In this document: positions 6,970-47,809 of the stretch, piece by piece | How the letters are laid out: each line of letters begins with the position of its first letter | How positions within the stretch are numbered: the stretch's first letter is position 1 | NCBI RefSeq assembly: GCF_050920415.1 | Contig: NZ_CP169309.1 | DNA: 64,000 bases | From: Escherichia coli | GTDB lineage: Bacteria > Pseudomonadota > Gammaproteobacteria > Enterobacterales > Enterobacteriaceae | Direction: 5' to 3' (one strand) | The notes under the pieces: model-generated | Seen by the model: the letters and a program-made list of their open reading frames with translations, nothing else | What the model was told of the DNA's origin: nothing | Databases searched by the model: none | Made by a program: the position numbers and the translations under genes

Positions 6970-6984
6970 ATGATCTATATCAAT
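6970..6984 (+). promoter_or_regulatory. candidate FNR box (aTGATctatATCAA) with a TATAAT -10 hexamer at 6993-6998, focA-pflB promoter region
   Basis: Near-match to TTGAT-N4-ATCAA in the AT-rich region upstream of focA; the focA-pflB operon is a known FNR/ArcA/IHF-controlled multi-promoter region. Confidence 0.45.
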
Positions 6985-45161: not shown

Positions 45162-45586
45162 ATCCCCTCCAGAAATATGTGACTTATCCTTTACGCTGGC
45201 AGTATAACGGGAAAGGCCTTGCTAATACGTGATGACATCACATTTAAGCATGGCAAATGTCTGAAAAATGAGCGAATAATCGCGTTATACTCCCTCTTGC
45301 TGATAAGTCTGCAAAAACAACAAAATCAAATAATTAGCATGATAAATTATTTTTTATTACGCCTAAAGGATTAAATCTTTTGCTTGCACTACACTGTCAA
45401 TCAGACAAATGACTATATGGGGCAACCCGCTGTTGCCCTAAATCAAATTTACTGGATTTATTTATCTGGTGAATGACTCGCCTTCGTTTTTAAAATAGCC
45501 GCGCATTATTTCCGTCGTCACTTTTTTACGACGACCCTATAAAACGACCATATTTTTCACAGGGTCAATTTTTAATTGAGGTGGAT

Positions 45587-46608: not shown

Positions 46609-46766
46609 TTGTAATTAAAGCGCAAGAACATCTTTAAATGAAAATGAATACCCTACCGATCCTTATGCATAACATTTCCTTTTAATTGCAACTTTACTCG
46701 TCCTTCCGCTTTCAGTAGTGTGTCATCGCGCATTTCGACTTATTTCTTTGCAAGGACTGGTTTTTC

Positions 46767-47666
46767 ATGTTTTCTGGGCTGTTAATCATTCTGGTTCCCC
46801 TGATTGTGGGTTACCTCATTCCGCTTCGCCAAAAAGCTGCATTAAAGGTTATTAATCAGCTATTAAGCTGGATGGTTTACCTTATTCTCTTTTTTATGGG
46901 TATCAGTCTGGCGTTTCTCGATAACCTCGCCAGTAACCTGTTGGCGATTCTGCATTATTCCGCCGTCAGTATTACCGTTATTTTACTGTGTAATATTGCC
47001 GCCCTGATGTGGCTGGAGCGAGGCCTACCGTGGCGCAACCACCATCAGCAAGAAAAACTCCCGTCACGTATTGCGATGGCGCTGGAGTCCCTCAAGCTCT
47101 GCGGTGTGGTGGTGATTGGCTTTGCTATTGGCCTTAGCGGATTAGGTTTCTTACAACACGCTACGGAAGCCAGCGAATACACGTTAATTCTGCTACTTTT
47201 CCTCGTCGGTATTCAGTTGCGTAATAATGGCATGACCTTAAAGCAGATTGTCCTTAATCGCCGGGGAATGATTGTCGCTGTGGTGGTGGTGGCCAGTTCT
47301 TTAATTGGTGGTTTAATTAACGCCTTTATTCTTGATCTTCCCATCAATACCGCGCTGGCAATGGCTTCCGGTTTCGGCTGGTATTCTCTTTCCGGTATTT
47401 TATTGACCGAATCTTTTGGTCCGGTAATCGGGAGCGCGGCGTTTTTTAATGATTTGGCCCGTGAGCTGATTGCTATTATGTTGATCCCTGGGCTGATTCG
47501 CCGTAGCCGCTCTACTGCACTGGGCTTATGCGGTGCGACGTCGATGGATTTCACACTGCCCGTTCTTCAACGTACTGGCGGACTGGATATGGTCCCGGCG
47601 GCGATTGTTCACGGTTTTATTCTTAGCCTGTTAGTGCCGATCCTCATCGCCTTTTTCTCTGCGTAA
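46767..47666 (+). CDS. lysO: L-lysine exporter LysO (YbjE)
   Basis: 299-aa hydrophobic ORF starting MFSGLLIILVPLIVGYLIPL. Confidence 0.88.
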   Translation: MFSGLLIILVPLIVGYLIPLRQKAALKVINQLLSWMVYLILFFMGISLAFLDNLASNLLAILHYSAVSITVILLCNIAALMWLERGLPWRNHHQQEKLPSRIAMALESLKLCGVVVIGFAIGLSGLGFLQHATEASEYTLILLLFLVGIQLRNNGMTLKQIVLNRRGMIVAVVVVASSLIGGLINAFILDLPINTALAMASGFGWYSLSGILLTESFGPVIGSAAFFNDLARELIAIMLIPGLIRRSRSTALGLCGATSMDFTLPVLQRTGGLDMVPAAIVHGFILSLLVPILIAFFSA

Positions 47667-47699
47667 TACCTCTCTGGCGGTAGATCCCTGCCGCCAAAA

Positions 47700-47713
47700 T
47701 TGCGCTAAATCAA
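47700..47713 (+). promoter_or_regulatory. candidate FNR box (TTGCGctaaATCAA) in the hcp promoter
   Basis: Match to TTGAT-N4-ATCAA about 100 bp upstream of the hcp ATG; hcp-hcr is a known FNR-dependent operon. Confidence 0.55.
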
Positions 47714-47770
47714 TCTCCCTTAAAGTTGCATGAAAAATCCCTTTTATCCCCGCGTTAAGCGTCTTAACCT

Positions 47771-47793
47771 TAAACATGTATATTAAATATAAC
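47771..47793 (+). promoter_or_regulatory. candidate NsrR operator (AT-rich palindrome acatgtatattaaatataact) overlapping the hcp promoter
   Basis: Imperfect inverted repeat resembling the NsrR consensus; hcp is an NsrR regulon member. Confidence 0.4.
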
Positions 47794-47809
47794 TTTAAAA
47801 GGTGTGATC

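Follow-up and report, generated by a model that had tools for sequence, protein, structure and literature searches.

The stretch analysed here (hereafter the window, 64,000 nucleotides of contig NZ_CP169309.1) derives from the Escherichia coli chromosome. A 341-bp query around the site, extending over lysO and hcp, matched 5424 of the 5426 complete E. coli genomes, and the segment 47625–47844 is identical at every base (100% identity) to the lysO/hcp-hcr segment of K-12 MG1655, so that published K-12 data apply directly to the window (K-12 v3 coordinate = 961624 minus window coordinate). In K-12 v3 numbering, the sites described below fall at 913911–913924 (FNR site), 913829–913851 (NsrR site I) and 913879–913901 (NsrR-like site II). 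Within the same genome collection, 4–6 matches to the hcp promoter fell on records labelled as plasmid, and a few genomes carried two copies. The gene order around the promoter is aqpZ, lysO, hcp, hcr, poxB. The lysO gene (46767–47666, stop codon at 47664–47666) is followed by an intergenic region (47667–47809) and by hcp (47810–49462, + strand), coding for the hybrid cluster protein of 550 aa (NCBIfam NF003658, hydroxylamine reductase, 815.5 bits, with which the RefSeq annotation concurs), and then by hcr (49474–50442, + strand), coding for an NADH oxidoreductase of 322 aa (NCBIfam NF007964, 638.2 bits). A Shine-Dalgarno sequence of hcp, AAGGTG, can be read at 47799–47804 (+ strand), 5 nt before the ATG at 47810. 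The intergenic region is the known and well-studied hcp-hcr control region of E. coli, an ordinary one whose biology is established. Indeed, the E. coli K-12 hcp-hcr promoter (hcpp), reportedly described in Filenko 2005/2007 and Chismon 2010, is the same locus and shows no difference from the one in the window, the FNR site at −72.5, the NsrR operator and the transcription start being identical.

For the comparison between species, contigs representing one genome per species were searched with a pattern covering the first 23 bases of hcp, which gave 120 loci; at least 160 bp of upstream sequence was available for 118 of them, and the 104 Enterobacterales-type loci were scored. Identity to the window was obtained from an alignment with one sequence per genus (36 genera).

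Transcription of hcp-hcr starts at 47779 (+ strand), as mapped experimentally in E. coli (Rodionov 2005, PMC1274295, Fig S1; bracketed T in AAACATG(T)ATATT), leaving a 5' UTR of 31 nt, and this start reproduces the −72.5 position of the FNR site quoted independently in Myers 2013. From the start, a −10 element TAACCT can be placed at 47765–47770 (+ strand, −14 to −9), and from this element and the usual spacing a weak −35 region CTTTTATC at 47741–47748 (+ strand). Yersinia and Erwinia have TATGCT in place of TAACCT (Rodionov 2005, PMC1274295). Across the 36 genera, the first T, the A in second position and the final T of TAACCT are each conserved in at least 90% of sequences, mean identity to the window being 0.82 for the hexamer and 0.36 for the spacer at 47746–47764. 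Hexamers in the −35 region agree with TTGACA at 2 of 6 positions at most; the CCTTTT of this region is conserved across genera. The weak −35 region together with the conserved TAACCT fits an activator-dependent sigma-70 promoter, a class for which a weak consensus is normal. The best sigma-70-like pair of the intergenic region, TTAACC-18-TATAAC (47764–47793, 3/12 mismatches), has its −10 hexamer inside the main NsrR operator described below and would start transcription near 47800, unlike the mapped start at 47779.

The possibility was also considered that hcp-hcr is transcribed from an alternative-sigma promoter on which FNR and NsrR act, either of sigma-E type or, following the Vibrio arrangement with a NorR-type activator, of sigma-54 type. 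A scan of 47500–47900 for consensus sigma-70 promoters and terminators detected nothing, hcp is listed without a sigma-70 ChIP peak and with mention of a sigma-E site in Myers 2013 (PMC3688515), and hcp upstream regions of Aeromonas carry a sigma-54-like element (TGGCA-N8-TGC). On the contrary, the best matches to the corresponding patterns are poor, with 4/12 mismatches for sigma-E (GGAACTT-N15-17-TCAAA) and 3/11 for sigma-54 (TGGCAC-N5-TTGCA), the main text of the sigma-E paper cited by Myers 2013 makes no mention of hcp or ybjW, and TAACCT/TATGCT, with its conserved T1, A2 and T6, is suitably spaced from the mapped start. An alternative sigma factor is considered very unlikely.

Upstream of these elements lies the FNR binding site TTGCGCTAAATCAA (47700–47713; no strand is assigned to this or to the NsrR-type operators), whose centre at 47706.5 corresponds to −72.5 from the start at 47779, a position from which FNR can activate. 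Of the 10 positions of TTGAT-N4-ATCAA, 8 are matched, with a perfect right half and TTGCG on the left. The coordinates given for it in the original prediction were exact, and the site is a published ChIP-positive one; the consensus match taken by itself, however, is weak evidence, given that the bare consensus with up to two mismatches occurs 48 times in the 64-kb window against 35.4 ± 6.1 times in shuffled sequences, not above chance. A symmetric weight matrix was therefore built from 61 ChIP-positive sites of Myers 2013 (Table S6), leaving out hcp and the neighbouring aqpZ site. By this matrix the hcp site scores 12.7 bits and ranks fifth among ≈64,000 positions, with 1.3 positions expected in shuffles, and its score falls within the lowest 8% of the training sites.

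Published binding data cover precisely this sequence. In Myers 2013 (PMC3688515), the site is given in reverse-complement form as TTGATTTAGCGCAA, at −72.5 and beneath an FNR ChIP-seq peak, an FNR ChIP-chip peak is found at hcp as well, and hcp-hcr is classed as "direct activation"; the site, credited there to Filenko 2005, has a PatSer score of 13.11 and a ln p of −11.6, passing the authors' cut-off of −10.75. An FNR-like site upstream of hcp had also been predicted from an alignment in Rodionov 2005 (PMC1274295). Of the 5426 E. coli genomes, 5399 carry the exact 30-mer that contains the FNR site. Between species, an FNR match of at least 10 bits was found upstream of hcp in 102 of the 104 Enterobacterales loci, whereas 0.035 such matches are expected per 220 bp (estimated from 944 kb of other DNA of the same loci). 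Mean identity across the 36 genera is 0.93 for the site and 0.59 for its flanks, with the ATCAA of the right half and the TTG of the left half nearly invariant.

The FNR-like 14-mer could in principle be a chance match, the anaerobic induction of hcp being indirect. Matches at 8/10 positions are indeed about as common in the window as in shuffles, the left half-site is non-consensus and the matrix score is low among true sites. Against this stand the ChIP-seq peak lying on the site together with an FNR-dependent change in expression (Myers 2013, PMC3688515), the near-invariance of ATCAA and TTG in 36 genera while the flanks drift, and the equal spacing of the site from the NsrR operator in 102/104 species. 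A chance origin is accordingly regarded as highly improbable: the FNR site stands above chance because of its position, its conservation and the published ChIP data, and not because of the consensus match. Binding of an additional regulator at the conserved TTGCG half-site was also considered and found no support: scores of the NsrR half-site matrix do not exceed 4.4 bits at this place, and the outer stem in which TTGCGC would pair with the lysO stop codon is confined to E. coli.

As regards its position, the hcp site resembles the class I arrangement of FNR/CRP-type activation (−61.5, −71.5, −82.5), with a single FNR site far upstream of a weak −35 region, although its centre is at −72.5 and not at the class I position of −71.5. 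Class II placement at −41.5 is found in 19 of 23 FNR-activated promoters (Myers 2013, PMC3688515).

Two other FNR-type matches were observed in the window. The first, TTGCCCTAAATCAA at 45433–45446, between ybjD and aqpZ, shares 13 of its 14 bases with the hcp FNR site; with 13.75 bits it ranks third in the window, and it corresponds to the ChIP-positive aqpZ/ybjD FNR site of Myers 2013 (PMC3688515); a NarL-type 7-2-7 match with 2 mismatches lies at 45358–45373, 74 bp upstream of it. The second, ATGATCTATATCAA at 6970–6983, has the top FNR matrix score of the window (17.0 bits), a value inflated by the presence of the site in the training set, and matches the focA FNR site TTGATATAGATCAT of Myers 2013 (PMC3688515).

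The main NsrR operator (site I) is an 11-1-11 inverted repeat, AACATGTATAT-T-AAATATAACTT, at 47773–47795, with its axis at T47784. It covers −6 to +17 around the mapped start and overlaps the core promoter elements, as had been anticipated in the original prediction. Read about this axis, the two arms complement each other at 7 of 11 positions and agree with the consensus AAGATGCATTT-N-AAATGCATCTT at 16 of 22. The AT-rich imperfect palindrome originally proposed as an NsrR operator was correctly identified, but its interval, 47771–47793, should be shifted by +2 bp: it includes 21 of the 23 operator bases, and in that register only 5/11 positions are self-complementary, 7/22 match the consensus and the matrix score is −10.2. 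The 23-bp NsrR matrix was derived from the 25 other sites of Table 4 in Mehta 2015, hcp being left out. At 47773 it gives 25.4 bits, rank 1 in the window, a score reached by no shuffle (the best of 100 shuffled windows was 20.6). The weight-matrix scan that had been suggested as a check places the FNR site at rank 5 and the NsrR operator at rank 1 of the 64 kb.

Published data cover this operator as well. AAGTTATATTTAATATACATGTT, the reverse complement of 47773–47795, is the second-best 11-1-11 NsrR site of the genome in Mehta 2015 (PMC5320621), where the NsrR ChIP-seq summit lies 22 bp upstream of the hcp ATG, namely 4 bp from the centre of site I. Already in Rodionov 2005 (PMC1274295), an alignment of the hcp upstream regions of seven enterobacteria had shown the palindrome gATGyAT-N5-ATrCATc downstream of the FNR-like site, and it had been assigned to NsrR. 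Moreover, hcp is up 284-fold in a Salmonella nsrR mutant, as published, and the hcp promoter is in published use as an NsrR-dependent reporter of intracellular NO. The exact 31-mer containing site I is present in 5178 of 5426 E. coli genomes. In all 104 Enterobacterales loci, the 220 bp preceding hcp hold an NsrR match of at least 19 bits, where the same 944 kb of other DNA predicts 0.002 per 220 bp, and mean identity of the operator across the 36 genera is 0.85. Between the FNR centre and the centre of site I, 60 of 97 loci have a distance of 77.5 bp, and 90 of 97 fall within 75.5–79.5 bp. The sequences, the positions and the deep conservation of the FNR and NsrR sites and of their spacing are directly observed.

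An alternative reading of the palindrome would be that of mere AT-rich promoter or start-site DNA, or of a site for a nucleoid protein. The sequence is in fact AT-rich, its self-complementarity is limited to 7 of 11 positions, and the best sigma-70-like hexamer pair of the region overlaps with it. Nevertheless, a matrix blind to the site ranks it first of 64 kb with a score above all shuffles, the NsrR ChIP-seq signal peaks 4 bp away from the centre of the operator (Mehta 2015, PMC5320621), the operator is found in 104/104 species, and the substitutions between species follow the NsrR motif (ATGTAT to ATGCAT, ATATAA to ATGCAA); the induction in the Salmonella nsrR mutant points the same way. 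We consider that there is hardly any chance of this reading being right, and an NsrR operator is retained. Both assignments match published genome-wide binding data for this very sequence, in accord with the known nitrosative-stress regulation of hcp-hcr to which the original prediction had appealed.

The ytfE and hmp promoters, core NsrR targets of E. coli, likewise carry an 11-1-11 operator over the core promoter and are relieved by NO, and ytfE, hcp and hmp are among the best NsrR sites in Mehta 2015 (PMC5320621). They differ from hcp in that the ytfE operator is a near-perfect palindrome (AAGATGCATTT-A-AAATGCATCTT), to which the hcp operator is matched at only 16/22 positions, and in that hcp, compared with ytfE and hmp, requires an upstream FNR activator.

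A second NsrR-like 11-1-11 site (site II), AAGTTGCATGA-A-AAATCCCTTTT, which was missing from the original prediction, lies 50 bp upstream of site I at 47723–47745 (−56 to −34), in the interval that separates the FNR site from the −35 region. It matches the NsrR consensus at 16 of 22 positions and scores 17.7 bits by the leave-out matrix (rank 2 in the window; a shuffled window is expected to yield 0.06 such matches), so that ranks 1 and 2 of the 64-kb window both fall inside the hcp promoter. The left half of site II corresponds to a third half-site, AAGTTGCATTA in strain CFT073, reported under the hcp ChIP peak in Mehta 2015 (PMC5320621). NsrR probably occupies −56 to −34 as well. Two NsrR targets at the E. 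coli hcp promoter are said to have been described in Chismon 2010.

The conservation of site II differs between lineages. Its position is kept across species, 49–52 bp upstream of site I, and its strength is at least 15 bits in 23 loci and below 10 bits in 60, while in 7 more loci it is the top match. Strong versions occur in Escherichia, Kluyvera, Mangrovibacter, Trabulsiella, Pectobacterium and Yersinia, and in Salmonella and most Enterobacter the site is eroded, a pattern that would, on a reading held to be unlikely, mean that double repression is tuned per lineage. Within E. coli, a G/T polymorphism limits the exact 31-mer of site II to 4159 of 5426 genomes. The polymorphic positions are 47732 and 47740, with AAGTTGCATGA in K-12 and the window and AAGTTGCATTA in CFT073 and in locus L034 of the comparison set; the T variant lifts the NsrR matrix score from 17.7 to 21.1 bits. 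A T-to-C change was observed in locus L077.

A further NsrR-like 23-mer, ACATTTCCTTTTAATTGCAACTT, lies at 46672–46694, 73 bp upstream of the lysO start, and is the third-best match in the window (15.3 bits). It was rejected as a true NsrR operator, being probably a chance match, as the control rate predicts about one such match per 64 kb.

A candidate NarL/NarP site of the 7-2-7 type (TACCTCT-ct-GGCGGTA; 47667–47682, + strand), likewise missing from the original prediction, begins one base past the lysO stop codon. It has 2 mismatches to TACYYMT-NN-AKRRGTA, and such matches are not above chance by sequence alone, with 4 in the window against 2.9 expected. Its centre at 47674.5 falls at −104.5, the position that Filenko 2005 and Chismon 2010 reportedly gave to NarL/NarP at the hcp promoter. 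In Rodionov 2005 (PMC1274295, Fig S1), the hcp upstream region is likewise drawn with candidate NarP sites. The left heptamer is conserved in most Enterobacteriaceae, while the right heptamer lies within a conserved hairpin.

This RNA hairpin follows the lysO stop and extends over 47661–47704, with an inner stem at 47675–47697 (TGGCGGTAG-atcc-CTGCCGCCA; −21.7 kcal/mol, z = −6.1). Across Enterobacteriaceae this stem is kept, with loops that vary and some compensatory changes (top pair GC to CG or AU), and no U-run follows the hairpin on either strand. In E. coli only, an outer stem is formed in which the lysO stop codon pairs with the TTGCGC of the FNR site. The conservation of the right Nar heptamer may reflect the covarying GC-rich hairpin at the lysO 3' end, and not Nar binding. 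In Yersinia, Serratia and Providencia (for example loci L115, L041 and L071), another conserved block, reading GAATAAATTCTCATTCGCA, GTAATAATTCCCATCCGCA or GATAATAGTTCTCATT, was observed 20–40 bp upstream of the FNR site, replacing the lysO hairpin and the Nar site of E. coli; its Providencia version is somewhat Fur-box-like.

Outside the Enterobacterales, hcp upstream regions of Aeromonas (for example loci L007, L024 and L039; ≈81 and 108 bp upstream of hcp) contain a full-consensus FNR site, TTGATCTGCATCAA, at an equal distance from the ATG, and no NsrR-type operator was found in these regions, the best score being at most 13.8 bits. Most Aeromonas hcp loci have instead a sigma-54-like element, TTGGCAAATTGAATGCC (TGGCA-N8-TGC), a pattern that recalls the NorR2/sigma-54 control of Vibrionales in Rodionov 2005 (PMC1274295). 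The left FNR half-site is degenerate in all Enterobacterales and full in Aeromonas, and this comparison of sequences might, on the same unlikely reading, point to selection for weak FNR binding.

More distant bacteria control the same target, also with induction by nitrosative stress, through HcpR (Bacteroides, Clostridia, Desulfovibrio) or through NorR2/sigma-54 (Vibrionales). These systems differ from E. coli hcp in both regulators and motifs, and neither an HcpR-type site nor a sigma-54 promoter was found in the hcp promoter region of the window. A 2026 preprint on "hcp promoter" RNA was set aside, its subject being Bacteroides HcpR, which is irrelevant to E. coli hcp.

Taken as a whole, we hold with high confidence that the hcp-hcr region is one activator-dependent promoter that combines oxygen, nitric oxide and nitrate/nitrite signals. 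Occupancy by FNR and NsrR in vivo, as well as FNR- and nsrR-dependent expression, has been shown in the cited papers, while the contacts between FNR and polymerase, the steric block by NsrR and what site II and the Nar site each contribute are inferred from what is generally known of the two regulators. The most likely mechanism is the established one. In the absence of oxygen, dimeric [4Fe-4S] FNR binds TTGCGCTAAATCAA centred at −72.5 and, from this upstream class-I-type position, would recruit RNA polymerase to the weak −35 region and TAACCT. Without NO, [4Fe-4S] NsrR occupies the 11-1-11 operator at −6 to +17 and would block polymerase at the start site, and the site II operator at −56 to −34, lying between FNR and the −35 region, would hinder activation. 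Damage by NO to the NsrR cluster makes NsrR leave the DNA, with derepression of the operon, and a modest further increase in response to nitrate/nitrite probably comes through the NarL/NarP-type site at −104.5.

It is doubtful that site II, the overlap of the hairpin with the Nar site and the weak FNR half-site amount to promoter constraints beyond the textbook arrangement of FNR plus one NsrR site. Were such constraints real, the comparative angle alone would be new, two NsrR targets in E. coli having reportedly been published. The practical value of the locus is that of a positive control, in that an experimentally supported region was found, and both regulators correctly named, by a reader working from the sequence only. 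For the biology of the organism, Hcp-Hcr is part of the anaerobic defence against NO, and the present data leave this picture unchanged, the comparative data adding small refinements to it: the register of the operator, a second NsrR-type site that varies between lineages and a hairpin lying over the Nar site.
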